Both the position numbers and the translations under genes were made by a program. A stretch of DNA of 22,144 nt from a virus (Duplodnaviria > Heunggongvirae > Uroviricota > Caudoviricetes): positions 1-22,144 of IMG/VR virus record IMGVR_UViG_3300046055_000032; one strand, written 5' to 3'. Each line of letters opens with the position of its first letter. Positions within the stretch are counted from its first letter, which is position 1. The notes under the pieces are model-generated. The model worked only from the letters and a program-made list of their open reading frames with translations, was not told where the DNA came from and ran no database searches. Below are positions 2,809 to 19,457 of the stretch, piece by piece.

Positions 2809-3576
2809 ATGACGGACGCAACGATCGTCGGCAACGCCGGGCACATCCGGCAGCAAATCGAACGTTTGAGCCTTCCGTACCAGGGTGACGTCCTCTTCAA
2901 CCCGCTGAAGTTGGACATCCGCGAGAACGGCGTGTATTGCGCCGTGCAGAGCCCACGGAAGACGAGCTTCCTGAAAGCGAAAGTGGATCTCGGCAAGGCC
3001 GACGGCGACGATGACGTCGTCCTCGACAGCCAGGACCTCCTCACGTTCCTCGGCAACTATGACCGAGACGAGCAGGTCCGCATCACGGTCGGGGACACCG
3101 TCACCATCGACGGCGAACGGCGCTCCAGCACCATTTACCCGCAGAACCTGGAACCGAGAGCCCCCGCCTCCCTGCCCCAGTTCGAGGACGGGATCGTACA
3201 GTACCGCGTCGGCGAGGACGAGTACGCGCCGGCGCAAGCCGTTGCCGAGGTCGCCTCCGAGCATCTCGCCGAGCTGGTGGATGACGCGAAAACCATTGAC
3301 GTGGCAAGTTTCCCGTTGCGCTTCGGGCCGCGGGAGAGCACGGCCAGTCTCGGCAGCTTGAAACCGAAGCACAACCAGATCGACGTACTACTTGACGCGG
3401 ACGTCGAGGGCGAGCACGCCGAAACCGTCATCGGCGAGGACTTCATTCACCTCTTCAACAACATCCGTGGCGAGGTGGAAGTCCAGCTCCGCGACAGCGC
3501 TCCGCTGGTCGTGGTGCACGAGCCCGCGGACAGCGATCGCATCGTGTACGTTCTCGCGCCGCGCAAGGACGCATAG
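2809..3576 (+). CDS. pcn: DNA polymerase sliding clamp (PCNA-like), 255 aa
   Basis: PCNA length; C-terminal APLVVVHE...IVYVLAPRK matches the PCNA P...Y-x-L-A-P-R end; RFC and PolB genes nearby. Confidence 0.8.
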   Translation: MTDATIVGNAGHIRQQIERLSLPYQGDVLFNPLKLDIRENGVYCAVQSPRKTSFLKAKVDLGKADGDDDVVLDSQDLLTFLGNYDRDEQVRITVGDTVTIDGERRSSTIYPQNLEPRAPASLPQFEDGIVQYRVGEDEYAPAQAVAEVASEHLAELVDDAKTIDVASFPLRFGPRESTASLGSLKPKHNQIDVLLDADVEGEHAETVIGEDFIHLFNNIRGEVEVQLRDSAPLVVVHEPADSDRIVYVLAPRKDA

Positions 3577-4735: not shown

Positions 4736-5000
4736 GAAGTCGGAACACGACGGCATCCACTCCCAGGACCTCTACCAGCGGTACTTTGAGGTCGTCGCGG
4801 ACACCGACACTCACCCCTCCGGGAGGGACGAGGAACCGTACTCCAAGCGGTACTTGGAGGATCTCGTCACGGAGCTGGAGGACGACGAGCGCATCATCTC
4901 GGAGATCGAGTCCCGCGGCCGCGGCGGTTTCGGGAAACGGTTCTGGGTCACGACGTTCGTTTCGGCGCGAGACTTCGACGACTGGGAGCCTGACGTATGA
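4674..5000 (+). CDS. Stand-alone winged-helix protein resembling the Orc1/Cdc6 C-terminal DNA-binding domain, 108 aa
   Basis: DLYQRYFEV...EPYSKRYLEDLVTELEDDERII...SRGRGGFGKRF follows the Cdc6_C pattern (Y-x-x-Y...P-L-S-x-R...L-x-E-L-E...G-R-G); ATGA coupling to the next gene. Confidence 0.6.
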   Translation: MTRPTRKKKQRHRAILYKIIEKSEHDGIHSQDLYQRYFEVVADTDTHPSGRDEEPYSKRYLEDLVTELEDDERIISEIESRGRGGFGKRFWVTTFVSARDFDDWEPDV

Positions 5001-5629
5001 CGAACGAGCTGAACGTTGACATCCGCGAATCGCAACGCACGATCGACGCGCTCCGCGCGGAAGCCGGCGAGGAGTGGGACGTTAACGTCGCCATGTTCGA
5101 GGTCGCGGACGTCTTCTACACGAACCGCTTCGGCATCGAGCACAAGCGACCGAACGATTTCGCGAACAGCATCACGGACAACCGCATCTTCCAGCAAGCG
5201 GCAGAGTTGAACGAGAACTTCGCGCAACCGTTCATCCTCGTCAGCGGAACCCTCGACGACGCGATGCACGCTCGGCGCGGCTTGAGCCCCGAGAGCGTGA
5301 AAGGTGTCGTCGCCAGTCTTTGTACCCGTCGCGGTGTTCCCGTCCTCTTCGCCGAGAACGAGTTCGCGAGCCTCGTGTTGCGATTGGCGGCAAAAACCGT
5401 GAAGACGGGCCCGATCGAGTACAATCCTGTACGGAAAACCGGAAGCACTCAAGACAAGCGGTACGCTTTGTTAACCCAGTTACCGCAGGTAGGCGAAACG
5501 ATCGCGGAACGGATACTGGACGAATATCCCAACCCTCTAATAGCTCTAAATAATATCGGGGAATGGCCGGAAACGATTCACGGCATCGGTCCCACATCCA
5601 AGGACGAGATCATTGATGTCCTCGAATGA
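4997..5629 (+). CDS. ERCC4/XPF (Hef-like) structure-specific nuclease with C-terminal HhH motifs, 210 aa
   Basis: VDIRE; ADV...GIEHKRPNDFANSITDNRIFQQ (ERKx3D-type); HhH motifs LPQVGETIAERIL and IHGIGP. Confidence 0.85.
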   Translation: MTNELNVDIRESQRTIDALRAEAGEEWDVNVAMFEVADVFYTNRFGIEHKRPNDFANSITDNRIFQQAAELNENFAQPFILVSGTLDDAMHARRGLSPESVKGVVASLCTRRGVPVLFAENEFASLVLRLAAKTVKTGPIEYNPVRKTGSTQDKRYALLTQLPQVGETIAERILDEYPNPLIALNNIGEWPETIHGIGPTSKDEIIDVLE

Positions 5630-7067
5630 ACCACTCACGGAGAAGTACCGCCCGACGACCCTGGACGACGTTTTAGGGCAAGAACAAGCGACGCGCCGCA
5701 TGAAGGAGTACGTGTCGAACTATCACGACGGCGATCTACAGATGCCGCACCTTCTCCTCACCGGACCGCCGGGCGTCGGGAAGAGCAGCGCCGCGTTCGC
5801 GCTCGCGCACGAACTTTACGGGGACGGTTGGGAAGAGAGCGTCCTGGATCTCAACGCCAGCGACGATCGCGGCATCGATCTCATCCGCGGCCGTGTCAAG
5901 GAGTTCGCGCGCAGCGCTCCCGTCGGCGAGGAGTTCGATGTGATCGTGTTGGACGAGGCGGACCATTTGTGCTTGCCGTCGGGATCTCCTGTCGTGACAG
6001 GCATGAGGTCTGGTAGGACGGTGAAACCAATCGAGGAAGTATCTCCTGAGGGTGAAGTGATTCCGTCACTTGATACGGAGACAAAACAACTGAAAAAAGA
6101 TACTGGTAGGTTGGTCGATTCGGGGACGGCTGAATTTTACGAGGTGAACTTCAAAGATGGGAGAAGTGTAACTGCCAGCCCAGAGCATCCGTTCTTTGTA
6201 TTGACCGACGAGGGGGAAATCGTAGAGAAGGAGTTGAGAGAGTTGGGTCCTGGGGATGAGATCGTAGATTTACAAGATAGCGTTGGCCTTAAGAAGTGCG
6301 GGATATGCTCTGATTGGACAAGGAACTCAAGGTTTTGCAGTAAAGACTGCAAAAATGAAGGACATAGCCGCGAAGTCTCTGGGGAGGACAACCCCAGATA
6401 TGGAGAGGATGGTTGGAACAAAGGTCTGACGAAAGACGATGATCCGAGAGTTGCAGCGCAGACCAATCATGGCCCCGATAATGGTAACTGGAACGGCGAT
6501 TTTCATGGTAAGAGCTGGCATGAGTTTGACAACGAGGAGTTGAAAGAAGAGGTCAGGAGGAAGTTATCGAAATCCCGCTCCGGGAAAAGCTATGAAGAGA
6601 TATATGGATCTGAGGAAAGCGCCAGAAAAGAACGCAGAAAAAGAGCGCCGGGGGAAGGTGAAACCGGGAACCTTGGGTCCAGATACCATCTGAAAGACAA
6701 AGACGAGGCTGTGTGTGAAGTTTGTGAGTCAATGTTCCCCGCGTCTGGGATCGATGGCATTTACGTTCACCACATTGATGGGGATCAAAGTAATAACGAA
6801 CCGAGTAACTTGATGAATGTATGCCCAGATTGCCACAATAATGTTTGCCACAACATAGCTGAGAGAACGTCAAATCATTGGGAGAAAATGTCAGAAGATG
6901 AGAAACGTATGAGGGTTGAAAAGATGAGCGAGGGGGTCTCAAAGAAGTGGGATGAGTGGAAAGAAGAGCTACCGGTTTGTGGTGCAGATTGTAAGACAGG
7001 TGGTACTTGTTCAAACCCTGTTAAGGATGATGATGAACAATGTTACATACACAAAGGTGATTCATAA
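5616..7067 (+). CDS. rfcS: RFC small subunit N-terminal half fused to intein N-fragment and HNH endonuclease
   Basis: EKYRPTTLDDVLGQ, GPPGVGKS, LNASDDRGID, VLDEADHL, then CLPSGSPV (intein block A, codon 5970), TASPEHPFFV (block B), HNH VHHIDGDQSNNEPSNLMNVCPDCHN; TAA at 7065-7067. TTG 5613 is an alternative start. Confidence 0.9.
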   Translation: MSSNEPLTEKYRPTTLDDVLGQEQATRRMKEYVSNYHDGDLQMPHLLLTGPPGVGKSSAAFALAHELYGDGWEESVLDLNASDDRGIDLIRGRVKEFARSAPVGEEFDVIVLDEADHLCLPSGSPVVTGMRSGRTVKPIEEVSPEGEVIPSLDTETKQLKKDTGRLVDSGTAEFYEVNFKDGRSVTASPEHPFFVLTDEGEIVEKELRELGPGDEIVDLQDSVGLKKCGICSDWTRNSRFCSKDCKNEGHSREVSGEDNPRYGEDGWNKGLTKDDDPRVAAQTNHGPDNGNWNGDFHGKSWHEFDNEELKEEVRRKLSKSRSGKSYEEIYGSEESARKERRKRAPGEGETGNLGSRYHLKDKDEAVCEVCESMFPASGIDGIYVHHIDGDQSNNEPSNLMNVCPDCHNNVCHNIAERTSNHWEKMSEDEKRMRVEKMSEGVSKKWDEWKEELPVCGADCKTGGTCSNPVKDDDEQCYIHKGDS

Positions 7068-7204: not shown

Positions 7205-7804
7205 ACAAACCAGGCACAGGCGGCGCTGCGCCGCACGATGGAGGATTATCCCTCGTCGCGTTTCATCCTCATCGGTAATTACCCGAACCGTATCATTCGA
7301 CCGATCCGTGACCGTTGCACGACGTTCCCCTTCACGCCCGTTGATCAAGAACGGGGTGTTTCGGCCTTGGCTCGCATCTGCGAGCGCGAGGGGATGGACA
7401 CTGACCGGGCCGCGCTGGAGGCGTTGTGGGAGCAAAACCGCGGTAGTATGCGTGGAGCCCTCAACGCTCTCCAGTCGTTTCCGCCGTCGTTCAGCGCCGA
7501 CGACGTTCAGCGCCATGCACCGTCGCAGGCGGCGAAGGACATCATGCAAGCCCTGGCGCAAGGCGAGACCCGGGACGCCGAGCAGCGGCTCTTGCAGCTC
7601 ATTCGCAGCGGCGTCAGCAGCGACGAAGTGTTCCGTTCATTGTTTGACGTGATCGATGACAGCTCGATGAACGAGGAGGCGAAGGACAACGTCTTGTTCC
7701 GGCTCGGCGAGTACGAGTACCGGGTCCAGACGGGATGCAGCCTCGACGTGCAAGCCCGGTGCTTCCTCCGGGAGATGAACAGTTTGCGGAGGAACGGTCC
7801 ATGA
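7067..7804 (+). CDS. rfcS: Intein C-fragment (46 aa) fused to RFC small subunit C-terminal half
   Basis: MPAAKK...VEIDSIE...AWNITM...GILTHN|TNQAQAALRRTMEDYP..RFILIGNYPNRIIRPIRDRC; own SD GGTGA (7056-7060) and TAATG overlap with the upstream stop. Confidence 0.9.
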   Translation: MPAAKKREINTVEIDSIESKGQGKAWNITMDKRPNFLLGNGILTHNTNQAQAALRRTMEDYPSSRFILIGNYPNRIIRPIRDRCTTFPFTPVDQERGVSALARICEREGMDTDRAALEALWEQNRGSMRGALNALQSFPPSFSADDVQRHAPSQAAKDIMQALAQGETRDAEQRLLQLIRSGVSSDEVFRSLFDVIDDSSMNEEAKDNVLFRLGEYEYRVQTGCSLDVQARCFLREMNSLRRNGP

Positions 7805-8616
7805 AGAGCATCGAAGAGGCACGAATCGAGACGGCGCAAGAGATCCTGGACGAGTCCGAAGCGCGCGATCCGGTGAAGACGTACTGCCTGTTCAGCGGCG
7901 GTCACGACAGTCTCGTCGCGACGCACGTTGCTCACGAACTGAGCGACCCGGATGGCGTCGTGCACATTAACACGGGCATCGGGATTCCCGAGACGAGAAC
8001 GTTCGTGCGCGACACTTGCGAGGCACAGGACTGGAACCTGATCGAGAAGGAAACGGAGCACGAGTACGAGGATCTCGTTCTGGAGCACGGGTTCCCGGGC
8101 CCACAAGCGCATCGGTACGCTTACACGACACTGAAGGAGCGAGCGATTGACGCGCTGCTCCGGGAAGCCAAAGAGTCTCGCGAGCAGGAAGTGGTGTTCC
8201 TGACGGGCGTCCGTCGATCCGAGTCCCGTAACCGGATGGGTAGCGCGGACGTGATCAACAAACGCGGTTCGCAGGTTTGGGCAGCGCCGATCATTTATTG
8301 GGACGCGTTGGACGTTACGCGATGGATTCGCGACCACGACATCGAGCGCAGCCCGGTCGTTGACAAGCTGCACATGAGTGGTGAGTGCCTCTGTGGCGCG
8401 TTCGCGACACGGGGCGAGTTCGAGCAGATCGAAATGTTTTACCCGGAGGTCGCGGAGCGAATCGAGCGATTGGAAGACGAGGCCCGGAACAAGGATATGG
8501 AACGGTGCCGTTGGGGTTGGGCGAACCGAAGACAGGGCGGTGAGAGCGACGATGCCACTGATTACTTCATGCCGTTGTGCAAGGACTGTGAGGCGGCCGA
8601 TGACGCCGAACAATGA
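7801..8616 (+). CDS. PAPS-reductase-family (PP-loop) protein, 271 aa
   Basis: CLFSGGHDS PP-loop, HINTGIGIPET, LTGVRRSESRNR, SGECLCG; ATGA overlap with the rfcS stop (in frame with the track ORF 7735-8616). Confidence 0.8.
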   Translation: MKSIEEARIETAQEILDESEARDPVKTYCLFSGGHDSLVATHVAHELSDPDGVVHINTGIGIPETRTFVRDTCEAQDWNLIEKETEHEYEDLVLEHGFPGPQAHRYAYTTLKERAIDALLREAKESREQEVVFLTGVRRSESRNRMGSADVINKRGSQVWAAPIIYWDALDVTRWIRDHDIERSPVVDKLHMSGECLCGAFATRGEFEQIEMFYPEVAERIERLEDEARNKDMERCRWGWANRRQGGESDDATDYFMPLCKDCEAADDAEQ

Positions 8617-8875: not shown

Positions 8876-11800
8876 ATGGTTACGTTCAAACCGTACAGTA
8901 TCTATTACGAGACGGAGCGCGACGACCTGGTCGTGCACCTGCACGGCCGCACCGCCGATGGGGAACGTCGAAGCGTGAAACTGTACGGTACGCAACCGTA
9001 TTGTTACGGGACGATCGTCCCGAGCCATGACCTCGTCACGGGCGTTGAACGCGACGCTGCCGAAACGTTGCAAGGTGAGAGCGTTCACCGCATCGAGACG
9101 GCGTTCCCGTTCAACGTTCCGAAGATCCGTGACGAGTGCGGTGACACGCACGAAGACGACGTCTGGTTCAGTGATCGCGTCCGTTACGATCACGGCATCA
9201 GGGGCGCCGTCGAGATCCCGGATCGCGACATGTTGAACCCGGGGGAGATCACGCCCATCAGTTACGACGAGCGCCCCGGGATTGACGCGCGCGTCTGTGT
9301 TTTCGACATCGAAGTGGGCAGCAAGCAAGGCTTCCACGGCCCCGACAACCCTGGCGGGGAAGTGCTCAGTATCGCCGCCTGGGACAGTTACCATGACTCG
9401 TACGTGTTCCTGCTGAACGGCCAGTTCGACCCCGCGTCGCAGCGGAAAGCGATGCGGTACTTCAAAAACGAGGACTGGAACGTCCAAATCGTTGAATGCA
9501 GCAACGAGCGCTCGCTGTACCAACGCTTCTGTCAATTCTTGATCGCGGCGCAGCCGGACGTTTTGGCTGGGTGGAACAGTTCCGATACGATGGGCAGCAA
9601 CGGCACGGACGGGTACGACGTACCGTACTTGAAAGCGCGCGCCGAGCTGGTCGGACACCCGCAACCCGATTGGGACCAATACGTCGCGTTCGACCTCATG
9701 GACGCGTACGCTCGAATGCAATTCACCGCGCTGGAAAGCAAAGGCCTGGATTTCGTGAGTCAAAAGGAAGGGCTTGAGGGGAAAACCAGCGACGAGAGCG
9801 TTTGGAAGCTCTACGAGCAGGATCGCGGCAACTTCGCGATCTACAACGTCGCGGACGTCTTCCTCACGAAAGAAGTCATGCAGCGCGCGAACGTTCTCGG
9901 GTTCTGGGAAGAGTTGAGCGACTTCGCTGGCTGCGGACTTCAAGATGCTCTCGCGGCGGGGCGTGTCGTGGATGCGTTCGTGTTCCATTGGTTGCGCGGC
10001 GACGATCGCGTTTTGCCGTCGCGTGGCGGGGGCGAGTCCCTGGATCTCGGCGGGGGCGAGGTTCTCGATCCCAGCGACGGCCTGTTCCGGCACGTGGTCG
10101 AGATCGATCTCTCGTCACAGTACCCGAACGCGATGCGGACGTTCAACTTGAGCCCGGATACGCTCGTGGACGAGGACTTTGACGGTCCCGTGTTCACGAT
10201 GCCGAGCGGTGCCCGTTATCGGAAAGACCAGCGCGGCATTATTCCGCACATCATCGACGAGCTGATTAGCCTTCGCGAGGCGAAACGCTCGCAAGGCAAA
10301 GAGTTAGAGCAGCGCGTTATCAAGGAGGTAGCGAACTCGATCTATGGAAACATAGGTTCGCCCTACAGCCGATTCCGTAACGAGTACATCAGTAACGACA
10401 TCACGGCCAGCAGCCGCGAACTCATCAGCTGGATCGCCAACCAAACAGCCGAACGAGGCGATCGTCCACTGTATGGGGACAGCATCACCAGGGATCGGTT
10501 CGTTACTGTCCGGGACCCCGACGGCAACGTGTACCCCATCAACATCGAAGAGTTCTTCGAGAGCGTGGCGGAACAAACCGGTGCCGCTTGCGAGTTCTTC
10601 CAGCCTGACAACGTCACTCGCCGAGCCGATGGGAAGGAGGAAACGTATCCCGAAGAGTGGGAGGCCCTTACTGTAAACCCCGAAACAGGCGAACCGTGCT
10701 GGCGCCCGGTCCGTTGCATCATCCGTCACGAAACGGACAAGACGATCTACCAGGCCCGGCAAAAGCACGGCATCACTCGATGTACCGAAGACCACTCCCT
10801 CATCGATCAAGACTACGAAGAAGTTCGCCCCGAAGAGTTAGAGGGTCGAGAGATGGCGTATGTTCGGGAACTTCCCCAGGAAGAGTTGAACTCTTCCGTT
10901 GACTTGGCCGATTGGTTATCGTTCGAGGATGTGATGATTGACGAGACCCCCAACATCGGGCAGCGCACTATTTACTGGGACGCAGCACAACGGTGCGGGG
11001 AGGTGGACCGACGCCTCGACGGCAAGCAGCTTGAGAACTTTTGCCGTCTCTTGGGAGCGTACGTGTCAGATGGGAGCGCTGGGACAAGCATCACTCGCGA
11101 CACTCGACGGGGTAGTTGGGGCATCTCGAACCAGAACAATGAATGGCTGGAGGAGATGCAAGAATACGCTCAGTCCGTGTTCCGGGGCGTCAAGCACTCG
11201 ATACTGGACGACATGGAGGGCAGCGGAACGTACAAGATGACGTCAGGGACGCGCCTCCCCGCCACCATCATGACTGTGCTGGCTGGCGCGGGCGCTCGTG
11301 GCAAGAGAGTGCCACGATTCTTGTTCGGGCTTGAGGATCGCTTCAAGTGGGCGTTTCTGGAGGAGGCAATACAAGGCGATGGCTGGTGGAAGGAGGGGGG
11401 CGAGTCGCCGGACGTTGAACAGCATCGTTTCTCGTACTGTTCCACGAGCCAAGAACTCATCTCGGGCCTCTCGCTGTTACTGAACTGCCTGGGCATCGAT
11501 CACGGGGTCAAGTACCGTCCTGAGAAAGAGAGCTACGCTCTGTACCGGCGCGAGCAGGTTCGGGAGACCCGTCTACAAACAACCGTATCGACCATGAAGT
11601 ACGATGGCCCCGTCTTCGACGTGGAGGTCGAGGGAACAAACATGTTCTGCGACTCCCTGGGGCACGTACTTCTCCACAACACGGACTCCGTCTTCTTCTT
11701 GTTCGCGGACGCTCCCGACGATTACCGTGGCGTGCAACGCATGGCGGAGGAGCGTGTCACGGAGCTGAATGACCAACTCGGCGAGTTCGCGGAACGTTAC

Positions 11801-12445
11801 GGATGGGAAGACGGCGACGAGCTGCATCTGGAACTGGACGTAGAGCACGTTTACGAAGCCTGGTACCAGCCGGGCGCCAAGAAAACGTACGTGGCCGTGT
11901 ACCGTGACCCGGACGGCAACATCGAGCGGGACGGGTACCGGTACTCGATGAAAGCCCGCGGTTTCGATCTCCGGTTCAGTAACACGGCCAACCTCACGAA
12001 AACCTTACAAAGGGAGGTGCTCGTCGCGCTCCTGTTCGGTGCCGGCCAAGACGACATCATCGACCATATCCGCGGAACGATCGACGAGCTGAAAGCCGGC
12101 AACATCTCGCACGAAGAGCTGCTCGTCCCGACCGGGTGGAACAAGAGCGAGTACAAGACCGAGCCCGAGCATGTACGCGCCGCGCGGTGGAGCAACGAGA
12201 ACCTCGGCAAGAATTTCGGTCCCGGGGACAAACCGCTCGTCCTGCCAGCGCACGTCGAGGACAAGCCACCGACGGACGTGATCGCGCTCGCGTGGGGTGA
12301 CGATCTCCCGGAGGGTACTGTCATCGACTGGGACGAAGTCGTTCGTAAAGCCATCTTGCAACCGATGGATAACGTTCTGGAACCGATCGGTATCCGGCAA
12401 CGGGACATCCTTCGTCCCACGGCCGAGGCAGACAGCTTCTTCTGA
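8876..12445 (+). CDS. polB: Family B DNA polymerase with 3'-5' exonuclease; contains an intein (1189 aa precursor, about 789 aa mature)
   Basis: ExoI FDIEV, ExoII GWN...YDVPYL, ExoIII YNVAD, motif A DLSSQYP, motif B KEVANSIYG, motif C YGD|TDS split by the intein. Confidence 0.95.
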   Translation: MVTFKPYSIYYETERDDLVVHLHGRTADGERRSVKLYGTQPYCYGTIVPSHDLVTGVERDAAETLQGESVHRIETAFPFNVPKIRDECGDTHEDDVWFSDRVRYDHGIRGAVEIPDRDMLNPGEITPISYDERPGIDARVCVFDIEVGSKQGFHGPDNPGGEVLSIAAWDSYHDSYVFLLNGQFDPASQRKAMRYFKNEDWNVQIVECSNERSLYQRFCQFLIAAQPDVLAGWNSSDTMGSNGTDGYDVPYLKARAELVGHPQPDWDQYVAFDLMDAYARMQFTALESKGLDFVSQKEGLEGKTSDESVWKLYEQDRGNFAIYNVADVFLTKEVMQRANVLGFWEELSDFAGCGLQDALAAGRVVDAFVFHWLRGDDRVLPSRGGGESLDLGGGEVLDPSDGLFRHVVEIDLSSQYPNAMRTFNLSPDTLVDEDFDGPVFTMPSGARYRKDQRGIIPHIIDELISLREAKRSQGKELEQRVIKEVANSIYGNIGSPYSRFRNEYISNDITASSRELISWIANQTAERGDRPLYGDSITRDRFVTVRDPDGNVYPINIEEFFESVAEQTGAACEFFQPDNVTRRADGKEETYPEEWEALTVNPETGEPCWRPVRCIIRHETDKTIYQARQKHGITRCTEDHSLIDQDYEEVRPEELEGREMAYVRELPQEELNSSVDLADWLSFEDVMIDETPNIGQRTIYWDAAQRCGEVDRRLDGKQLENFCRLLGAYVSDGSAGTSITRDTRRGSWGISNQNNEWLEEMQEYAQSVFRGVKHSILDDMEGSGTYKMTSGTRLPATIMTVLAGAGARGKRVPRFLFGLEDRFKWAFLEEAIQGDGWWKEGGESPDVEQHRFSYCSTSQELISGLSLLLNCLGIDHGVKYRPEKESYALYRREQVRETRLQTTVSTMKYDGPVFDVEVEGTNMFCDSLGHVLLHNTDSVFFLFADAPDDYRGVQRMAEERVTELNDQLGEFAERYGWEDGDELHLELDVEHVYEAWYQPGAKKTYVAVYRDPDGNIERDGYRYSMKARGFDLRFSNTANLTKTLQREVLVALLFGAGQDDIIDHIRGTIDELKAGNISHEELLVPTGWNKSEYKTEPEHVRAARWSNENLGKNFGPGDKPLVLPAHVEDKPPTDVIALAWGDDLPEGTVIDWDEVVRKAILQPMDNVLEPIGIRQRDILRPTAEADSFF
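10481..11680 (+). mobile_element. Contiguous intein (400 aa) with LAGLIDADG homing endonuclease in PolB motif C
   Basis: Starts with Ser after YGD; TRCTEDHSL (block B), LLGAYVSDGS and FLEEAIQGDG (DOD motifs), STSQELISGLSLLLNCLGI; ends VFDVEVEGTNMF...LLHN followed by Thr+1. Confidence 0.92.
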
Positions 12446-12458
12446 TACCGTCCCCGAA

Positions 12459-12483
12459 CCGAAACGCTTTCAAATCCTAAAGG
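12459..12483 (+). promoter_or_regulatory. Putative BRE/TATA promoter of the modification cassette (likely leaderless)
   Basis: CCGAAACGCTTTCAAATCCTAAAGG: TATA-like TTTCAAAT starts 28 nt before ATG 12496. Confidence 0.5.
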
Positions 12484-12495
12484 GTTTTTTGCAGC

Positions 12496-12996
12496 ATGAA
12501 TCCCGAGAAGGCTACGTGCCGCTCGTGCGGGTCCACGTTCAACGTCACGTACGACGTCTGGGACGGCCGCCCGCGCGGCGTAGCTGACTTCATGAGCCCG
12601 AAACTGTCACCCGGTACCGAGAACGCGATCCGAACGATCGCGGCCTTGAACGAGTACGAGATGGTGGGTGTCGTGAGTATCGTGGACTGTGACGGCGTCG
12701 GTTACTTGACGGGCCTCAAAGTGGCGAGAACGGTCCGCAACGAGGGCATCGGGACGCGCCTGACGCGCCGCTGCTGCGAGGAGGGCGAGAAGCTCGGTTG
12801 GGATCGCATCTACTTGGACACGGTCACGGACAAGGCCGCATCCGTGTTCATCGGAGTCGGTGCCACGACGGTTACCTATGACGAGATGCTGGGCGCTGTC
12901 GAGGACCACTTGGGTGACGCTGTCCGAGGTTATCGGGCATCGGATCGCGATTACGAATGCTGGGTGATCGAGTTGAGTGATAACGATGACGAGTAA
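12496..12996 (+). CDS. GNAT-family acetyltransferase with N-terminal CxxC knuckle, 166 aa
   Basis: YLTGLKVARTVRNEGIGTRL = GNAT acetyl-CoA-binding motif A; WDRIYLDT; N-terminal CRSCG. Confidence 0.8.
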   Translation: MNPEKATCRSCGSTFNVTYDVWDGRPRGVADFMSPKLSPGTENAIRTIAALNEYEMVGVVSIVDCDGVGYLTGLKVARTVRNEGIGTRLTRRCCEEGEKLGWDRIYLDTVTDKAASVFIGVGATTVTYDEMLGAVEDHLGDAVRGYRASDRDYECWVIELSDNDDE

Positions 12997-14167
12997 CGAA
13001 CAAGACGAGAACCCGGACTGGGCTCGCGGTTACCCTGTTGAGGAACTGGAGCGCATCGCGGACATTTGCCAAGAGCACGATCACGAGTACAGTCTCAGCG
13101 TGTTCTCGAAAGTCCAGGAGCGCGACGTAGCGACCTGGATGGACGAGTACCAGGTGATCGCCGCCGACGACTGGTGCATCGTGTACGAAGACGTGGATCG
13201 CTCGCGCCGCATCCAGGACTTCCGCCGCGAGCCGCGCGGCAAGATGCAACGGTACGATCGCTTCGTTCGGCGCGTCGCGTGGCGAGACGACGACTCTTCC
13301 GATGCGTACAGTGCGGTCCGTGAGACACTGGGTGCTCTCCTGGACGACGTCACGGGATGGGTTCGTCTCTGGCAAGGCCATCCCGGCGATGAGCGTCTCG
13401 CGGACGACCTGGGCCTCGATCACGGGCTGACGAAGATCTCGGCCGCGAGCGAGCTGGAAGGCATTTGGGTCACGGACGACGAGATCGTTCACATCGATGA
13501 TCTCCTACCCGAGGAGGCGCTGCACTTGGAGCGAGCCAGTACAAGCATCGACCCGGACGCGTTCCAAGCAGCGCGGGACGCCCTGGATCGCATCGAGGAA
13601 TGGACGGGCCACTACTCCAAGTACGGGGACCCGGACACGTGGAGCGCGCTCGCGCTGCGCGGTTTCGGCGGCAAGACGGGGTTCATTGACAAGCCCGCGG
13701 AACGGAACCAGTCGTGGCGTGAGGACAACCCTGACAAACTGAACTGGGAATGCCAAGATACGCCGCTTCGGGACGAGCTGCCGGAACTGGACCCGCTCAT
13801 CGATGCCGTCCCGGGTCGCAAGGAGCGCATCCGGCTCATGCGTCTCGGTCCCGACGACGGGGAAATCGAACGTCACGCGGACATCACGGACCCGGACGCC
13901 GGCGCCGCGCTCGGCAACTTGATGCGAATGCACGTCCCGCTGCAAACGAACATCGGCGTCGCGTTCACGAGCTGGAACCGTTTCGGGAACCCGAAAACGA
14001 CGCACATGGGCGCGGGCGAGATCTGGTACTTGGACACTCGAAAACCGCATCGCGTCATCAACGAAGGCAGCACGGATCGCGTTCATCTCGTCCTCGACGT
14101 GGAAAGCAACGAACAGTTGCTCGACACGCTGGGCGTTGAGAAACAAACAGTGGGAGAGTTCTTTTGA
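12986..14167 (+). CDS. Two-domain protein: unassigned (possibly GNAT-like) N-domain + Asp/Asn beta-hydroxylase-like 2OG-Fe(II) oxygenase, 393 aa
   Basis: RIRLMRL...IERHAD (HxD), MRMHVPL, GEIWYLDTRKPHRVINEGSTDRVHLVLD (distal His and 2OG-binding Arg); ends KQTVGEFF. Confidence 0.8.
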   Translation: MTSNEQDENPDWARGYPVEELERIADICQEHDHEYSLSVFSKVQERDVATWMDEYQVIAADDWCIVYEDVDRSRRIQDFRREPRGKMQRYDRFVRRVAWRDDDSSDAYSAVRETLGALLDDVTGWVRLWQGHPGDERLADDLGLDHGLTKISAASELEGIWVTDDEIVHIDDLLPEEALHLERASTSIDPDAFQAARDALDRIEEWTGHYSKYGDPDTWSALALRGFGGKTGFIDKPAERNQSWREDNPDKLNWECQDTPLRDELPELDPLIDAVPGRKERIRLMRLGPDDGEIERHADITDPDAGAALGNLMRMHVPLQTNIGVAFTSWNRFGNPKTTHMGAGEIWYLDTRKPHRVINEGSTDRVHLVLDVESNEQLLDTLGVEKQTVGEFF

Positions 14168-14464
14168 TGAGCGATATGAAAGTGGACGATTGTCGCATCC
14201 TGCACGGAGACGCTCTCGACCGGCTTGGGGACGTGGATGACAATAGCGTGCATACGTGCGTGACCAGTCCCCCGTACTGGGGTTTGCGCGAGCGGCCGCA
14301 AACCATTCCCCCGTTCGCGGCGGTGCAAGCGGGGAAGTGCGCAGCGAAACGTTACACGTCGAAAGTGCACGAATACTGCCTCGTCTTCCGCAAGGGGGGG
14401 GGGCGTCCGTGAGGGAGAGATGGAGCCCGTCAGTCGCACCGATAACGCGGAGGATTTCTTTTGA
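14167..14464 (+). pseudogene. Internally deleted, frameshifted amino-methyltransferase relic
   Basis: ILHGDA...VHTCVTSPPYWGLR joined directly to KRYTSKVHEYCLVFRK; no AdoMet-binding motif I; TGA at 14410-14412 just after a G10 run (14394-14403). One G fewer would extend the frame to ...NAEDFF-stop at 14464. Confidence 0.7.
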
Positions 14465-15378
14465 CTCGCCAAAACTCGCTCGTTGACCAGTACGTGGAGC
14501 CGCCGTTCAGTACGCTGAACACTCAATCGCAGCGCTGGCAGGAGCGCAAGAACTGGTGGATCAACCTCGGCATCCAGAGCCACCTCGGTCGCGGGGACAA
14601 CCTGCTTGGTTTCAGCGAGACCGTTCTCGGTGAGAGCGGCGAACTGGACGGGACGAGCATCTTTGACCCCGTGCTGTGCGAGCTGATGTACCGGTGGTAC
14701 TCGCCAGACGACGGGACCGTACTTGACCCGTTCGCGGGCGGTAGCGTTCGCGGGGTCGTGGCTGCGTGCCTCGGCCGAGACTATGTCGGCATTGACGTGA
14801 ACGAGAAGCAGGTCGAGCACAACCGGCAACAATGGAACGAGATCCGCCACGTTAACGACTGGGGCGGCGAGCCGCGTTGGATCGCGGGCGACAGCAAGTA
14901 CGTGCTCCCCACGCTCGACGACGATGCTGATTTCCTGTTCTCGTGCCCGCCCTATTACGCGCTGGAACAGTACACGGACCGGGGCGACGATCTCAGCAAC
15001 GCGCCAAGTTACGACGACTTCGCGAGCGACATGCGCGACATCATCCAGCAAAGTTATGACCAGTTAGCGCCGAACAGTTTCGCTGTATGGGTCGTCGGCG
15101 AGATCCGCGACGACGACGGGTCCTATCACGGTTTCGTTCCCGACACGATCGAATGGTTCCGAGACGCTGGGTTCCGGTACGAGAACGAACTCGTACTGGA
15201 AACCAGTCTCGCGACCGCCGGAATGCGCGCACGGCGCCAGTTCGACGCGAGTCGGCGCGTCGTGAAAACGCACCAGAACGTTCTCGTGTTCTGCAAGGGG
15301 GACGCGAAAACGGCCACGGACCAGCTCGGGGACGTGCAAGCGCAGCCCGGGGACGAGAACGCACAGGAGTTCTTCTAA
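14461..15378 (+). CDS. DNA amino-methyltransferase (N6-A or N4-C), 305 aa
   Basis: Motif I VLDPFAGG precedes motif IV FSCPPY; N-terminal PPFSTL...W...K..W; C-terminal KTHQNVLVFCKG; TTG start with SD GGAGG (14449-14453); ends NAQEFF. Confidence 0.85.
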   Translation: MTRQNSLVDQYVEPPFSTLNTQSQRWQERKNWWINLGIQSHLGRGDNLLGFSETVLGESGELDGTSIFDPVLCELMYRWYSPDDGTVLDPFAGGSVRGVVAACLGRDYVGIDVNEKQVEHNRQQWNEIRHVNDWGGEPRWIAGDSKYVLPTLDDDADFLFSCPPYYALEQYTDRGDDLSNAPSYDDFASDMRDIIQQSYDQLAPNSFAVWVVGEIRDDDGSYHGFVPDTIEWFRDAGFRYENELVLETSLATAGMRARRQFDASRRVVKTHQNVLVFCKGDAKTATDQLGDVQAQPGDENAQEFF

Positions 15379-16328
15379 TGACGCTGCAAGCGGAGTTGTG
15401 TCCGGAGACGTTAACGGAGTACGGGAACACGGAAGAGGCGAGCGTTGGCCGGAACTTTATCGAAAGCTGGCAGCGCGGGCACCCGCTCGCGGACGCTCTC
15501 CTCCTCCACGGACCACCGGGCGTGGGTAAAACGACGCTCGTGCGTTGCCTTGCGCGCAGTTACGGGTTAGAGATGGTGGATTGGGACGCGAGCAGTGACG
15601 TTGACCGCGACACGATCCCCGTCATGTACCGTGCCGCGCTGAGCGCGTCCTGGAACGGGGACCCGAAAATCGTTTTCGTTGACGAAGTCGAGCACATCAC
15701 CACCACGCAACAGCAACGGATCGCTGACATCATTGACGCGAGCCGGCATCCCGTCATCTTGGCGTGCAATCATTACGGGGACGTGCACGAGAGCGTCAAG
15801 GACGCGTGCATGACGATCGAGTTCGGTCCGCCAAAGACGCGAGCCCTGGAACGGTTGGCGAAACGCATCAACGATCGCGAAGCGTTACCGGGCGTTAGCG
15901 CGGAGGACGTTGCGGAGGCCCGATCCTTCCGGCAGCTCCTCGGCGCCGCGTGTGGCGGCTCAGTCGGCGTCGCGCGTGCCGATGACTTCGATGCGCGCAT
16001 CCGTCAACTCCTCCGCGGCGAGGACGTCGATCTGCGGCCCAGCGAGTACTGGTTAGCGAAGGCGTGGCTGCTCGACAACAGTAACGGGACGCCCGCCGGC
16101 GAGTACGATCGATGGTTGGCACGGTACCGTGACGTCGGGTCGTCGATGGAGAAGTACATCAAGCGGGCCGTCCGGCAAGTACAGCGCCGGTGCCGGCAAC
16201 CTCGTTTCCCGTGGAGCGTGACGATCCAGGGTAAGAGCGACGACGAGGAGGACGGGGAGCGTGACGCGGACGACGAGGGGGACGAGGACGAGGAGGGCGC
16301 GAGCGGGATCGCTGCGTCGTTCTTCTGA
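15378..16328 (+). CDS. rfcL: RFC large-subunit-like AAA+ clamp loader, 316 aa
   Basis: LLLHGPPGVGKTT, WDASSD, IVFVDEVE, PVILACN; acidic tail ending IAASFF; TAATG coupling to the methyltransferase stop. Confidence 0.75.
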   Translation: MTLQAELCPETLTEYGNTEEASVGRNFIESWQRGHPLADALLLHGPPGVGKTTLVRCLARSYGLEMVDWDASSDVDRDTIPVMYRAALSASWNGDPKIVFVDEVEHITTTQQQRIADIIDASRHPVILACNHYGDVHESVKDACMTIEFGPPKTRALERLAKRINDREALPGVSAEDVAEARSFRQLLGAACGGSVGVARADDFDARIRQLLRGEDVDLRPSEYWLAKAWLLDNSNGTPAGEYDRWLARYRDVGSSMEKYIKRAVRQVQRRCRQPRFPWSVTIQGKSDDEEDGERDADDEGDEDEEGASGIAASFF

Positions 16329-16571
16329 CACGCTGGACAGAAGCGAAAAAGGGATAAAGGAGAGAGCCTGTTCCTTATCCCCGAGAGGGCAACTTTCGGC
16401 AGATGGTTCCGCCCTGGGCATGGCGTAAAACTGCCCCACCCCTCTGTACGGAGGACGACGTATGCGAGACGAAACCCGAGCCTGCCTGATGCTGCAAGGA
16501 CGTGCATCCATACCCCTCCTGACGCGTCATGCGCTCGGGCGTCAAACCGCCGCCTCCGTGGGGGTGCCGTG

Positions 16572-16730
16572 ATGGCTTCCTGTCTTGGTTGCGGTGAGTC
16601 GTTGACCGTTGACGAGAACGAGGCGGCGTGGGAGGAGCATATCGTGAAAGTCGAGCGCGGCGCTCTCGGGGCCAGTCGGAAGTACTTTTGCAGCGGAGAG
16701 TGCTTCGTTGCGCGGGAGCGTTCGACGTGA
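16572..16730 (+). CDS. Small zinc-finger protein, 52 aa (below the ORF-track cutoff)
   Basis: My translation: MASCLGCGESLTVDENEAAWEEHIVKVERGALGASRKYFCSGECFVARERST; CxxC...FCSxxC; upstream GGGGGTG; GTGA overlap with the next ORF. Confidence 0.6.
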   Translation: MASCLGCGESLTVDENEAAWEEHIVKVERGALGASRKYFCSGECFVARERST

Positions 16731-17005
16731 GTCTGCGTTTCGACGAGTACCAGGACGCAACCGAGGCGACGGCCGTGTATCCGCGCGACGCCGCGATCGA
16801 GGGCGTCGACGGCGGCGTCCTGTACACGGCCCTGGGTCTCGTTGGAGAAGCCGGACCGAAGTGTCCCGAGTGCGGGTGCTTGATCGCGCATCACTGTCAG
16901 TCGATCGGTTGCCGTGACTGCGAGGCGTCCGGCTGCGTGAGGGCGCCGCCGTTCGCGCGAGCGATTGTTCGCGGTGAGGAGCGGAGCGATCAGTGGTACC
17001 GATGA
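16727..17005 (+). pseudogene. Truncated MazG-like pyrophosphatase N-terminus fused to a CPxCG Cys-rich segment, 92 aa
   Basis: FDEYQDATEATAVYP...LYTALGLVGEAG is the MazG-like start, but it switches to PKCPECGC... without the second-half ELGD motif. Confidence 0.6.
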
Positions 17006-17139
17006 CGGGGACTGGTCCCGTGATGTTAACGCTCTCGCATGACGAGGCGCGTTGGTTGCTCATGCTGCTCGATCATCACAAGGCTGCGGGCGTGGACGAG
17101 GAGGAGTTGGCGAGCACGTACGAGAAGCTTCGTCGGTAG
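17002..17139 (+). CDS. Hypothetical protein, 45 aa
   Basis: ATGA overlap with the upstream stop; MTGTGPVMLTLSHDEARWLLMLLDHHKAAGVDEEELASTYEKLRR. Confidence 0.45.
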   Translation: MTGTGPVMLTLSHDEARWLLMLLDHHKAAGVDEEELASTYEKLRR

Positions 17140-17197
17140 GTGGCGCGTTTGCCCCGGGAGTGAGAGTCATGTCATGTGAGTTCGTGGGGAACTGGCC

Positions 17198-17217
17198 AAG
17201 GATTTAAATCCTTTAGG
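17198..17217 (+). promoter_or_regulatory. Palindromic TATA/operator upstream of the SNF2 gene
   Basis: Perfect 16-bp palindrome AAGGATTTAAATCCTT (17198-17213) containing TTTAAAT; SD GAGGTG at 17233-17238 before ATG 17244. Confidence 0.55.
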
Positions 17218-17243
17218 CGCCTATATGTGCTTGAGGTGCCAGG

Positions 17244-19457
17244 ATGAGTTCGACGAGTGACATTAAGCGCCTGCAACGCGCGACGCGTTTACTCGCGGCG
17301 CGCTGCGACGGCGCGAAGGCCCGTGACGGGCACGGGTTCAACAAGATCGATGCCCGTTTCGGTCAAGAGTTAGCCGCGCAAGACGACTGGACGGACCGAC
17401 AGGCTCGCGCGGCGTACGACATGCTGGAAAAGTACGAGCGGCAGCTGCACGAGGCCGGGATCGACATCGCGGACGTTGACCGCCCCGAGGTGTCAGAGAA
17501 CGTCGTGCTGGGCGTCAAAGACGACCGCCTCGTCTTCCGGTTCAGCGGCCCCGACTTCGAGTCGATCAAGGAGGACGTCAAGGCGTTGCCGTACCGTCGG
17601 TTCGTTCCCGAGAACGAGGGCGGCCCGCACTGGGTCGTTGGCGATCGGACCAAGGAGGATCTGCGCGCGCTCGAAGACTTGATCGAGGCGTGGGACCCGT
17701 TCCTGACGGACGCCGCGCGCCGCCGCCTGGAAACGGCTCGCGAGAACGCTGACGGCCCGAACGATTCGAGCCCGGCCCAGCACCGCGTCGTGCTTCACGA
17801 CGGCGTGCTCGCGCTCGATTTCCCGTACGACGAGGACGTGAAGGACGAACTGAAGAACCACTTCTCGTCCTGGGACTGGGCGCCCGACGCGAAGCTTTGG
17901 CTCGTGGACGGGAACGGGGAGCTGCTCGACGAACTGGACGCCTGGATGGAAACGTACCCGGAGTTCGAGCTGGGTGAGGACGCGAAGGAGTACGTTGCGC
18001 GGAAGCGTGAGGAGGTGCGCCAGAACCGTGAGGGTAGCCGCGCCGAGGACTCGGACGTTATGGCCGATTACGAGAGCGCGTCCGGTCACCAATTGTTCGG
18101 GTACCAGCGCGCGGGGGTCGAGTACGCGTGCGAGAACGAGCACGTCCTCATCGCTGACTCCATGGGCCTCGGTAAAACGATCCAGGCGCTCGCTACGCTG
18201 GAGAACAAGGACGCGTACCCGGCCGTGGCCGTCGTTCCCGCGAACTTGAAACAGAACTGGAAACGGGAAGCCAACGAGTGGGTGCCCGAGCGCGACGTCC
18301 GCATCCTGGACGGCACGACCGCGGACGAGCTGGGGGACGCTGACCTGTACGTGATGAATTACGCCATGCTCAGTCGCGGCGCGGACGAATGGCTCACCGC
18401 GTTCGCGAGCGAGGATCTCGCAGGCGTGATCCTGGACGAGAGCCATTACGTCAAGAACGAGGACGCGAACCGTTCCCAAGCGGCCGCGGATCTCGCGGAC
18501 GGCGTTCCGGTTCGGTTGCTCTTGACCGGTACGCCCGTCCTGAACCGTCCCCAAGAGCTGGTGCATCAGCTTCGCGTCCTGGACCAGCTCGGTGAGTTTG
18601 GCGGGTTCTGGGACTTCGCGAAACGTTACTGTGACGCGCACAAGGAGTACGTTCCCGGGCGCGGGCGCGTCTGGGACTTTAGCGGCGCGTCGAACACGAC
18701 GGAACTGAACCAGCGCCTGCGCGAAACCTGCATGGTTCGCCGCCAGAAAAGCGACGTCCTCTCCGAGCTGCCGGCGAAAAGTCACGCTAACGTTACGTTG
18801 CCCGCGGACCAGGACGAGCACGACGAGGCCGTCCGCGAGTTCCGCGAATGGCGGCGTCAAGCCGACGAGAGCGAACTGAACGCTGAAGCGATGGTGCGCA
18901 TCGAGAAACTGAAACAGGCAGCCGTTCGGGGAAAACTGGACGCTGCGATCGATTGGGTCGAGGATTTCGTCGCGAGCGAGAAGCTCGTCCTCTTCGCGAT
19001 GCATCGGGACGTCATTGACGAGCTGCGTGACGCGTTCCCGGACACGGCACTGATCGTGGAAGGGCAAAGCGGTGAGGAGCGCGAGCGCGAGAAGGAGCGG
19101 TTCCAGAACGATGACGATTGCCGTCTCCTCATCGGTGCGATGGGTGCGCACGCGGGTGCGAGCCCGGCCGGTTTGGGGCATACGCTCACGGCCGCGAGTA
19201 ACGTCGCGTTCCTGGAGCTGGGTTGGACGCCCGCGCATCACGACCAATGCGTGGATCGGACGCACCGCATCGGGCAGGACGAGCCCGTGACGGCCTGGTA
19301 CTTGATGGCGAAGGGAACGGTCGAGCAAGACATCAAGCAGGTCCTGGATCGCAAGCGCGAGGTCGTTGACGAAACCACTGACGGGCTTGCCAAGGATGAC
19401 GTCGCGCCGGAGCACGTTGCCGTTGACGTCGCTGACCGCGTTGCGGCGGAGGGCTGA
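17244..19457 (+). CDS. SNF2/SWI2-family ATPase (SMARCAL1/HARP-like), 737 aa
   Basis: LFGYQ (Q motif), IADSMGLGKTIQA, ILDESHYVKN, LLTGTPVLN, DRTHRIGQ; two HARP-like N-terminal segments. Confidence 0.9.
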   Translation: MSSTSDIKRLQRATRLLAARCDGAKARDGHGFNKIDARFGQELAAQDDWTDRQARAAYDMLEKYERQLHEAGIDIADVDRPEVSENVVLGVKDDRLVFRFSGPDFESIKEDVKALPYRRFVPENEGGPHWVVGDRTKEDLRALEDLIEAWDPFLTDAARRRLETARENADGPNDSSPAQHRVVLHDGVLALDFPYDEDVKDELKNHFSSWDWAPDAKLWLVDGNGELLDELDAWMETYPEFELGEDAKEYVARKREEVRQNREGSRAEDSDVMADYESASGHQLFGYQRAGVEYACENEHVLIADSMGLGKTIQALATLENKDAYPAVAVVPANLKQNWKREANEWVPERDVRILDGTTADELGDADLYVMNYAMLSRGADEWLTAFASEDLAGVILDESHYVKNEDANRSQAAADLADGVPVRLLLTGTPVLNRPQELVHQLRVLDQLGEFGGFWDFAKRYCDAHKEYVPGRGRVWDFSGASNTTELNQRLRETCMVRRQKSDVLSELPAKSHANVTLPADQDEHDEAVREFREWRRQADESELNAEAMVRIEKLKQAAVRGKLDAAIDWVEDFVASEKLVLFAMHRDVIDELRDAFPDTALIVEGQSGEEREREKERFQNDDDCRLLIGAMGAHAGASPAGLGHTLTAASNVAFLELGWTPAHHDQCVDRTHRIGQDEPVTAWYLMAKGTVEQDIKQVLDRKREVVDETTDGLAKDDVAPEHVAVDVADRVAAEG

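Follow-up and report, generated by a model that had tools for sequence, protein, structure and literature searches.

What does a virus do with an acetyltransferase, an oxygenase and methyltransferases encoded between its DNA polymerase and its clamp loader? The question is raised by positions 12496-15378 of the stretch of DNA analysed here (the window, 22,144 nt in full), which is the first 22 kb of the IMG/VR record IMGVR_UViG_3300046055_000032 (86,144 bp, 94% complete). The first-pass annotation had described at this site, between polB and rfcL, genes for a GNAT protein, a two-domain AspH-like oxygenase (OXY), a methyltransferase relic and an intact methyltransferase (MT), and both the four genes and their placement were confirmed. 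The cassette is best explained as an archaeal-virus variant of a widespread viral DNA-hypermodification module, in which MT and OXY are usually accompanied by an enzyme dependent on pyridoxal phosphate (PLP). Its components are as follows.

12446..12495, plus strand: promoter-like intergenic spacer of 50 nt, with the TATA-like element TTTCAAAT about 25 nt before the GNAT ATG (read from the sequence).
12496..12996, plus strand: stand-alone GNAT N-acetyltransferase, 166 aa (PF00583, E 8e-9).
12977..14167 (likely ATG at 12986), plus strand: OXY, 396 aa, a fusion of a GNAT fold and an Fe(II)/2-oxoglutarate (2OG) oxygenase, ending ...VGEFF (PF05118; AF2 model).
14167..14464, plus strand: relic of a beta-class N6/N4 methyltransferase, as an 82-aa reading frame (14164/14167-14412) and a shifted frame up to the TGA at 14462-14464 (phrog_67).
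14461..15378, plus strand: MT, intact N6/N4-type methyltransferase fold, 305 aa, TTG start, ending ...AQEFF (PF01555, E 5e-14).

The translational coupling noted at first pass was borne out by overlapping starts and stops throughout the cassette. The OXY ATG at 12986 sits 8 nt ahead of the GNAT stop, the OXY TGA and the relic ATG have one base in common at 14167, and the TTG start of MT (14461) overlaps the TGA (14462-14464) that closes the shifted frame of the relic. A leaderless haloarchaeal promoter is likely ahead of GNAT, as judged from the sequence of the spacer: the distance of about 25 nt between a TATA-like element and the ATG is that expected of leaderless haloarchaeal transcripts, and TTTCAAAT is similar to TTTAAATCCTTTAGG, an element upstream of the SNF2 gene at 17244. 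The ratio of non-synonymous to synonymous substitution (dN/dS) was determined against L088, a 7.5-kb JGI contig that we take to be the closest relative with the gene layout of the window. The ratios were low for GNAT (0.10), OXY (0.14) and MT (0.13), indicating that all three genes are maintained by purifying selection. Megablast of the cassette against cultured phages gave no match.

OXY and the viral module to which it belongs

The PF05118 match of OXY covers aa 217-376 (E 4e-10; 40 bits against a threshold of 22.6), and the N-terminal domain is without Pfam assignment. In the AlphaFold (AF2) model made from 47 homologues (pLDDT 93, pTM 0.89), aa 175-380 form a double-stranded beta-helix of the AspH/proline-hydroxylase/Cpz10 type, with structural matches (VIA Z) to L-proline cis-4-hydroxylase (4p7x, 15.7), Cpz10 (7v4p, 15.2) and AspH (14.9), and with AlkB-family structures among the lower matches (Z 10-11). 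A profile search of PDB sequences with OXY gave the same top two, L-proline cis-4-hydroxylase and Cpz10. The iron/2OG site is complete as HxD...H...R, H300, D302, H358 and R368 being invariant in the 47 homologues, and the spacing of H358 and R368 is that of H725 and R735 in AspH; from these residues and their spacing the site looks active. The earlier description of a two-domain AspH-like oxygenase thus holds for the C-terminal domain and had to be corrected for the N-terminal one, as aa 20-170 were modelled as a divergent GNAT fold (Z 11.6; root-mean-square deviation 2.6-3.3 A over 123-138 residues of dozens of acetyltransferases). Since the acetyl-CoA loop Q/R-x-x-G-x-G/A was found neither in the window sequence nor in the 47-sequence consensus, and since no GNAT Pfam match was obtained, this domain is regarded on the strength of the model as having the GNAT fold only, and it is not classed as an acetyltransferase. 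OXY is not AspH proper, which is ruled out by the full HxD triad and by a GNAT fold in place of a TPR domain, nor was it assigned to the TET/JBP dioxygenases, for no Tet_JBP match was detected in it.

The closest solved relatives of the OXY C-domain are enzymes acting on amino-acid moieties, namely free L-proline and a chain on a uridine derivative. Cpz10 beta-hydroxylates a four-carbon aminobutyryl chain, derived from S-adenosylmethionine (SAM) and attached to an amine of glycyluridine, and a PLP enzyme can take this intermediate down another route, by decarboxylation (PMC9814697). It is therefore too narrow to say that AspH-like enzymes normally act on proteins or lipids, as free L-proline and a nucleoside intermediate are also among the substrates of these relatives.

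The profile search proposed at first pass for the N-terminal domain (12986-13500) gave 427 clusters at 50% identity from both bacterial and archaeal viruses, always alongside the C-domain, indicating a wide spread of the module. Members of the OXY family are about 380-400 aa long with both halves conserved, and a word-based search gave 237 matches. The neighbourhood survey, proposed likewise, covered 85 OXY loci (80 IMG/VR contigs, four metagenome or genome contigs and the window) and established both the linkage of OXY with MT and the PLP enzyme as the usual third member. By iterated profile searches, an MT orthologue was identified in 69 of the 85 loci and the PLP enzyme, about 241 aa long, in 67. 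The usual gene order is MT, OXY and PLP enzyme, mostly with stops and starts overlapping by 4-8 nt. Among the 44 loci with at least 2.5 kb of flanking sequence on both sides, MT was located within 3 kb in 33, and so was the PLP enzyme in 33. Clustering of all neighbouring reading frames at the 85 loci yielded no further family in more than 15. The other neighbours are variable (terminases, portals, helicases, RecT, nucleases, ThyX and DNA polymerases), indicating that the trio moves as a cassette among viral modules of DNA metabolism and packaging.

The linkage is tightened by gene fusion. The arrangement ParB-MT(N half)-PLP-OXY-MT(C half) was found in five clusters and ParB-MT(N)-OXY-MT(C) in three; ParB-MT-PLP-OXY, ParB-MT-OXY, PLP-OXY, OXY-MT(C half) and beta-class methyltransferase-OXY fusions were also observed. 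OXY, alone or together with the PLP enzyme, is inserted inside the methyltransferase fold in no fewer than eight distinct clusters, between the equivalents of residues 128 and 135 of the window MT, which lie between motifs II and III. Such insertion argues for joint action of these enzymes, as a single unit, on a single substrate. In the PLP partner itself the lysine of R-D-D-L-x-GGSK is invariant, and among solved structures its best match is 1j0a, an ACC-deaminase homologue. The partner is homologous over its full length to gp52 of Pseudomonas phage M6 (hhalign 98.9%, E 2e-17), for which PLP-dependent decarboxylation of a thymine-linked amino acid in DNA has been proven experimentally (PMC8989533). 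Together with the replication and packaging contexts and the C-terminal tails described below, the co-occurrence and fusions support the earlier proposal of a functional link between OXY and MT, with DNA as the most likely target. As the closest relatives of OXY act on amino-acid moieties and its PLP partner belongs with enzymes trimming DNA-attached amino acids, an amino-acid-like adduct is likelier than a hydroxymethyl group.

Further contexts were identified in cultured phages. By tblastn, OXY matched Mycobacterium phage LilMcDreamy only, in which gp4 is a full-length member of the family (E 3e-43). Directly before it stands gp3, identified as an amino acid:DNA transferase by PF18724 (47 bits; cut-off 26) and not homologous to the PLP enzyme. 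OXY is thereby linked a second time to an enzyme adding amino acids to DNA. Upstream are the ParB-like gp1 and gp2, the latter annotated as queuine tRNA-ribosyltransferase and giving a sub-threshold Tet_JBP match only. Lying just before the terminase, the genes for gp1-gp4 (L087, 1-3759) have the look of a thymidine-hypermodification cassette that includes a beta-hydroxylase and has gone unreported. Thymine dioxygenases that depend on ParB and are linked to amino acid:DNA transferases were described in 2026, without a PF05118 partner (PMC13229309). ParB-MT-PLP fusions lacking OXY occur in phages of Erythrobacter (vB_EliS_R6L and ZS04), Pseudanabaena (Pam4) and Microcystis (Mae-JY30), the PLP enzyme being inserted in MT. 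In Croceibacter phage P2559S (L090, 2515-4156) gp66, of the MT family, and gp67, a SAM decarboxylase (PF02675, E 2e-19), are encoded by overlapping genes. Decarboxylated SAM is an aminopropyl donor, and the overlap hints that the MT family may use it.

In the window, MT lies beside a two-domain OXY and no PLP enzyme adjoins them, so the cassette is a variant of the module. The gp52-like PLP enzyme was not found anywhere in the 86-kb genome (94% complete). In L003, where OXY is 59% identical to that of the window and the gene order is DruA-PolB-DruA-PLP-OXY-MT-RFC-L, the slot upstream of OXY holds the PLP gene; in the window the same slot holds the stand-alone GNAT. This GNAT scored 36.2 bits against PF00583 (cut-off 20.7), and the canonical acetyl-CoA pyrophosphate loop (Q/R-x-x-G-x-G/A) can be read in its translation as R-N-E-G-I-G-T. 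Its presence is limited to one of the 85 OXY loci, the window, plus the close relative L088; among 5.8 billion proteins the L088 copy is the single homologue (92% identity, same gene order), and tblastn against cultured phages gave no match. A core role for GNAT, as first suggested, was therefore not borne out. From its position and distribution we regard the stand-alone GNAT as a lineage-specific replacement for the gp52-like PLP enzyme. Its best NCBIfam match, a weak one, is the amino-acid N-acetyltransferase ArsN2, whose target is the alpha-amine of an amino-acid analogue. A PLP enzyme requires a free primary amine, and GNAT would acetylate such an amine; the swap would thus fit a substrate bearing a free alpha-amine.

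MT matched PF01555 with 53 bits (cut-off 26.7), phrog_12517 with E 2e-89 and phrog_498 with 5e-68, and belongs to a ParB-linked phage family, here without the ParB domain. Its SAM-binding motif I is DPFAGGS, in which D-P-F-A-G-G is invariant in 31 homologues. Motif IV reads S-C-P-P-Y instead of the usual (D/N/S)-P-P-(Y/F/W), with the Cys invariant in 31 of 31.

The relic matched phrog_67 with E 3e-10 over aa 1-43. When it was aligned to full-length beta-class enzymes, an N-terminal motif IV (TSPPYW) and a later HEY..VF.KG motif were recognized; the SAM-binding motif I was not found, and all else has been lost as well. A run of ten G at 14394-14403 breaks its frame, the +1 frame continuing to the TGA at 14462-14464 with the ending ...AEDFF; with one G fewer, the frame would extend to about 99 aa and close with EDFF. 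The L088 copy has the same first 125 nt or so and the same EDFF end in another frame, and has decayed differently, indicating that the gene was once whole and has decayed at least twice. Four G/C runs of at least 10 are present in the genome, about one being expected by chance: two at the left terminus (27-38 and 101-110) and two inside methyltransferase genes (14394-14403 and, outside the window, 72260-72269), each of the latter G10 runs breaking the frame of its gene. They could represent slippage-prone switching or homopolymer sequencing error. A second small methyltransferase-like gene is often located beside or fused to OXY elsewhere (L005, 9151-9840; L004, 1777-2500; L026; L039), retaining motif I and carrying a degenerate motif IV (QGSAYL or ITSLPDM, not SPPY).

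C-terminal FF tails and the replication neighbourhood

The cassette is embedded in the left arm of the genome, a single long plus-strand replication operon as judged from Pfam, PHROG and an ESM Atlas model. Its order is Sak4-like ATPase, 255-aa PCNA-like protein, primase-like protein, ERCC4 nuclease, split RFC small subunit, PAPS-reductase-like protein (7735-8616), PolB with an intein, the cassette, an RFC-L-like clamp loader and an SNF2 helicase. Three of these genes bear on the C-terminal tails.

2809..3576, plus strand: divergent PCNA-like sliding clamp, 255 aa (ESM Atlas model).
8876..12445, plus strand: family B DNA polymerase (PolB) with intein, ending ...ADSFF (Pfam; census of C-termini).
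15378..16328, plus strand: RFC large-subunit-like clamp loader (RFC-L), ending ...AASFF (AAA and Rad17 Pfam matches; phrog_11838, 6e-26).

RFC-L is translationally coupled to MT, its ATG having one base in common with the TAA of MT at 15378. The virus, with a G+C content of about 61% and an acidic proteome, has the cultured Haloarcula virus HCTV-2 among its relatives, indicating that it is a tailed virus of haloarchaea. HCTV-2 encodes a ParB-MT protein, gp11, and a beta-class methyltransferase, gp12.

Of the 572 reading frames of at least 60 aa in the 86-kb genome, four end in Phe-Phe (FF), and these are PolB, OXY, MT and RFC-L, joined by the relic when it is read in its shifted frame. The same tail was observed in L088 on PolB, OXY, MT, the relic and RFC-L, and in L003 on PolB, OXY, MT, RFC-L and two DruA-like proteins, the PLP enzyme being without it. 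The consensus of the PCNA-interacting (PIP) box is Q-x-x-[ILM]-x-x-[FY]-[FY] (PMC2737543). Pfam PCNA models find no clamp in the genome, and the protein at 2809-3576 is without Pfam or PHROG match; its Atlas model (pTM 0.85), however, superimposed on archaeal PCNA clusters with TM 0.80-0.82 over 228-230 residues, and an orthologue stands at the start of L003. The window virus thus appears, from this model, to encode its own divergent sliding clamp, on which the FF tails would probably dock. Clamp tethering is not claimed outside haloviruses, for most OXY homologues of bacterial phages are without the tail. A few of their C-termini resemble beta-clamp motifs (DLDLF, GSLF, GQLF), and MT of the bacterial-phage lineages has a different conserved end, [LI]GGE[LIV].

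Several features of the surrounding operon were also observed. The segment of about 900 nt that separates RFC-L from the SNF2 helicase gene (16329-17243) is without a convincing reading frame, tRNA or Rfam match, the Rfam and tRNA scans of the window being empty throughout; at its 3' end, ahead of the ATG, stand a promoter-like palindrome, GGATTTAAATCCTTTAGG, and GAGGTGCC. In L088, RFC-L was called as two reading frames (4873-5823; 56 and 251 aa), possibly by a frameshift or an assembly error. The two FF-tailed DruA-like genes of L003 (Druantia protein A, PF14236; 2885-3754 and 6261-7199) lie on either side of PolB, and the PAPS-reductase-like gene of the window occupies the slot of the first.

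A candidate pathway weighed against its rivals

We favour a replication-coupled DNA hypermodification, in which an amino-acid-like side chain is tailored by OXY and GNAT, at a probability of roughly 0.55. In this pathway the side chain would be installed on a base of new DNA by MT or, with lower likelihood, by the GNAT-like domain of OXY, and OXY would then hydroxylate the chain. The acetyl-CoA-dependent GNAT would finally cap the free amine of the side chain, where the relatives would decarboxylate it instead with their PLP enzyme. OXY and MT, as formerly also the second methyltransferase, would be recruited to the replication fork through the C-terminal FF tail that they have in common with PolB and RFC-L, and the expected benefit is the shielding of viral DNA from host nucleases. 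The 86-kb genome yielded neither an amino acid:DNA transferase (ADDT/aGPT-Pplase) nor a TET/JBP enzyme, so that the remaining candidates for the installer are MT and the GNAT-like domain of OXY; as the PLP enzyme is missing as well, the genome holds no other known route of hypermodification. The order proposed at first pass, methylation followed by hydroxylation of the methyl group and acylation, gained no specific support.

A number of observations weigh against the pathway favoured here. All members of the module are known from sequences and models alone, and we know of no PF05118 enzyme with a proven DNA substrate. The GNAT-like domain of OXY is devoid of the acetyl-CoA loop, and the FF tail keeps the aromatic pair of the PIP box without conservation of the Gln and aliphatic positions (canonical QxxLxxFF). 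Neither MT nor the PLP enzyme is near OXY in 5 of the 44 well-flanked loci, many MT-family genes of cultured phages are without OXY or PLP partner and may simply methylate, and the exchange of GNAT for the PLP enzyme was seen in just two closely related contigs. Prediction of an MT-OXY complex from their alignments gave a score of 0.00, which, as it was run without controls, counts neither for nor against binding.

A more specific version of this pathway can be put forward, tentatively and with considerable doubt. MT would move not a methyl group but the 3-amino-3-carboxypropyl arm of SAM to a base in nascent DNA, and OXY would beta-hydroxylate the arm; the relatives would decarboxylate it to a hydroxy-aminopropyl group with the gp52-like PLP enzyme, while the window virus would N-acetylate it, all of this being tethered to the viral sliding clamp. 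Such chemistry is hinted at by the kinship of OXY with Cpz10, by ParB-MT-PLP fusions without another installer, by the overlap with the SAM decarboxylase gene in P2559S, and by the invariant C-P-P-Y of MT. If true, this would add a class to the known DNA base modifications, one that is made at the replication fork.

One alternative is plain methylation, in which MT makes only N6-methyladenine or N4-methylcytosine, and OXY and GNAT act on a protein, such as one of the replisome or the host, or on a small molecule, the operon serving for co-expression. The known substrates of PF05118 members are indeed proteins, lipids, free amino acids and antibiotic intermediates, protein N-terminal acetyltransferases are among the GNAT-fold matches, and many MT homologues stand alone in cultured phages, some annotated as adenine methyltransferases. 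Under this explanation, however, it would be hard to see why OXY is repeatedly fused to or inserted inside the methyltransferase fold, why its usual PLP partner comes from a family trimming amino acids on DNA, and why it carries an FF tail of its own like that of the polymerase. As LilMcDreamy moreover ties OXY to an amino acid:DNA transferase, we consider plain methylation unlikely. Still less probable in our judgement is tailoring of the cofactor, by which OXY, with the PLP enzyme or GNAT, would alter a SAM-like donor or a free amino acid before MT transfers the group to DNA. A parallel is the carboxy-SAM pathway of CmoA/CmoX, in which the altered donor is both made and used. Small molecules are the substrates of the solved enzymes nearest to OXY, the MT homologue of P2559S overlaps the gene for a donor-tailoring enzyme, SAM decarboxylase, and phage enzymes of the methyltransferase fold that use altered SAM are known (PMC12783734). 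Yet SAM itself was not accepted by Cpz10 (PMC9814697), M6 gp52, the homologue of the PLP partner, acts on the DNA-bound conjugate (PMC8989533), and the clamp-type tail of OXY suggests work on DNA. The Fe/2OG double-stranded beta-helix, the AlkB-family structures among its lower matches and the location in a replication module would also be consistent with an AlkB-like OXY, editing the methylation pattern left by MT or repairing alkyl damage in viral DNA. To this oxidative demethylation or repair we assign very little weight, since the AlkB-type matches are far below the amino-acid hydroxylases, a demethylase fused within the very methyltransferase that it opposes would serve no purpose, and the PLP partner, GNAT and the GNAT-like domain would all be left unexplained.

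Comparison with known systems

The arms race with restriction and CRISPR systems is shaped by hypermodification of viral DNA, which has also been a source of biotechnology tools. To our knowledge, almost all known pathways begin from 5-hydroxymethyl-pyrimidines or deazaguanines. The enzyme set of the present module differs, being composed of an amino-methyltransferase fold, a PF05118 hydroxylase-GNAT fusion, and a gp52-like PLP enzyme or an acetyltransferase. As a variant, the archaeal cassette suggests that finishing enzymes (PLP decarboxylase versus acetyltransferase) can be swapped between lineages, and that DNA-modifying enzymes may be recruited to the fork by the putative clamp-binding tail of the polymerase. 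Cultured relatives exist in HCTV-2, Croceibacter phage P2559S, Erythrobacter phages, Pseudanabaena phage Pam4 and Mycobacterium phage LilMcDreamy. Our literature search gave no publication that treats PF05118 enzymes in the modification of viral DNA, nor any on the MT-OXY-PLP trio.

The logic is closest to the thymidine hypermodification of phages M6, ViI and PaMx11 (Lee et al., PMC8989533), in which a DNA-attached amino acid is tailored after replication by a PLP decarboxylase or an acetyltransferase. The two alternate between sister phages, a flavin lyase and an acetyltransferase replacing the PLP enzyme and its radical-SAM partner in PaMx11-like phages (PMC8989533), which is the same kind of swap as that from PLP enzyme to GNAT in the window. 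Those systems, however, start from 5-hydroxymethyldeoxyuridine (5-hmdU) with a DNA kinase and an amino acid:DNA transferase, none of which was found in the genome of the window virus; here the DNA-engaging enzyme is a methyltransferase fold, to which a PF05118 hydroxylase is added. The window was accordingly not assigned to the 5-hmdU-based clusters, as it is also without a gp52-like PLP enzyme and the logic alone is shared. The phage cassettes of C5-methyltransferase, TET/5mYOX dioxygenase and glycosyltransferase (PMC8256090; PMC13229309) resemble the module in combining methyltransferase, dioxygenase and tailoring enzymes, often with ParB, for post-replicative modification. They differ in that the window has PF05118 in place of Tet_JBP and an N6/N4 fold in place of C5, and in that the relatives of its oxygenase hydroxylate amino-acid carbons, not a base methyl group.

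Among single enzymes, Cpz10, acting with Cpz13/Mur23 in caprazamycin and muraymycin synthesis (PMC9814697), is close to the OXY C-domain also by profile (E 3.5e-6), and the beta-hydroxylation or PLP decarboxylation of one intermediate mirrors OXY and its PLP partner. Its substrate, in contrast, is a free nucleoside antibiotic intermediate, it has no GNAT-like domain, and its identity to OXY is only about 22-24%. Human AspH and the bacterial L-proline cis-4-hydroxylase, both of PF05118, belong to the same beta-helix family with equivalent iron/2OG ligands. AspH, however, has two His ligands only, whereas OXY has the full HxD...H set with an N-terminal GNAT fold and no TPR, and OXY, unlike either enzyme, occurs only in viral contexts of DNA metabolism. 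Mom of phage Mu (PMC13219725) is a GNAT-fold enzyme that puts glycine, from Gly-tRNA, on adenine N6 of double-stranded DNA, and so is a precedent for GNAT folds acting on DNA bases; it works without oxygenase or methyltransferase, and in the Pfam scan it had no sequence similarity to either GNAT of the window.

Phage cassettes joining a methyltransferase or other transferase to an oxygenase and tailoring enzymes are thus already known (PMC8256090, PMC8989533), as are enzymes of the GNAT and methyltransferase folds by which groups other than methyl are transferred to DNA (PMC13219725, PMC12783734). Against this background, what is new in the window is the member from an archaeal virus, the exchange of the PLP enzyme for GNAT, the decayed second methyltransferase, and the clamp-type tail common to the modification and replication proteins.

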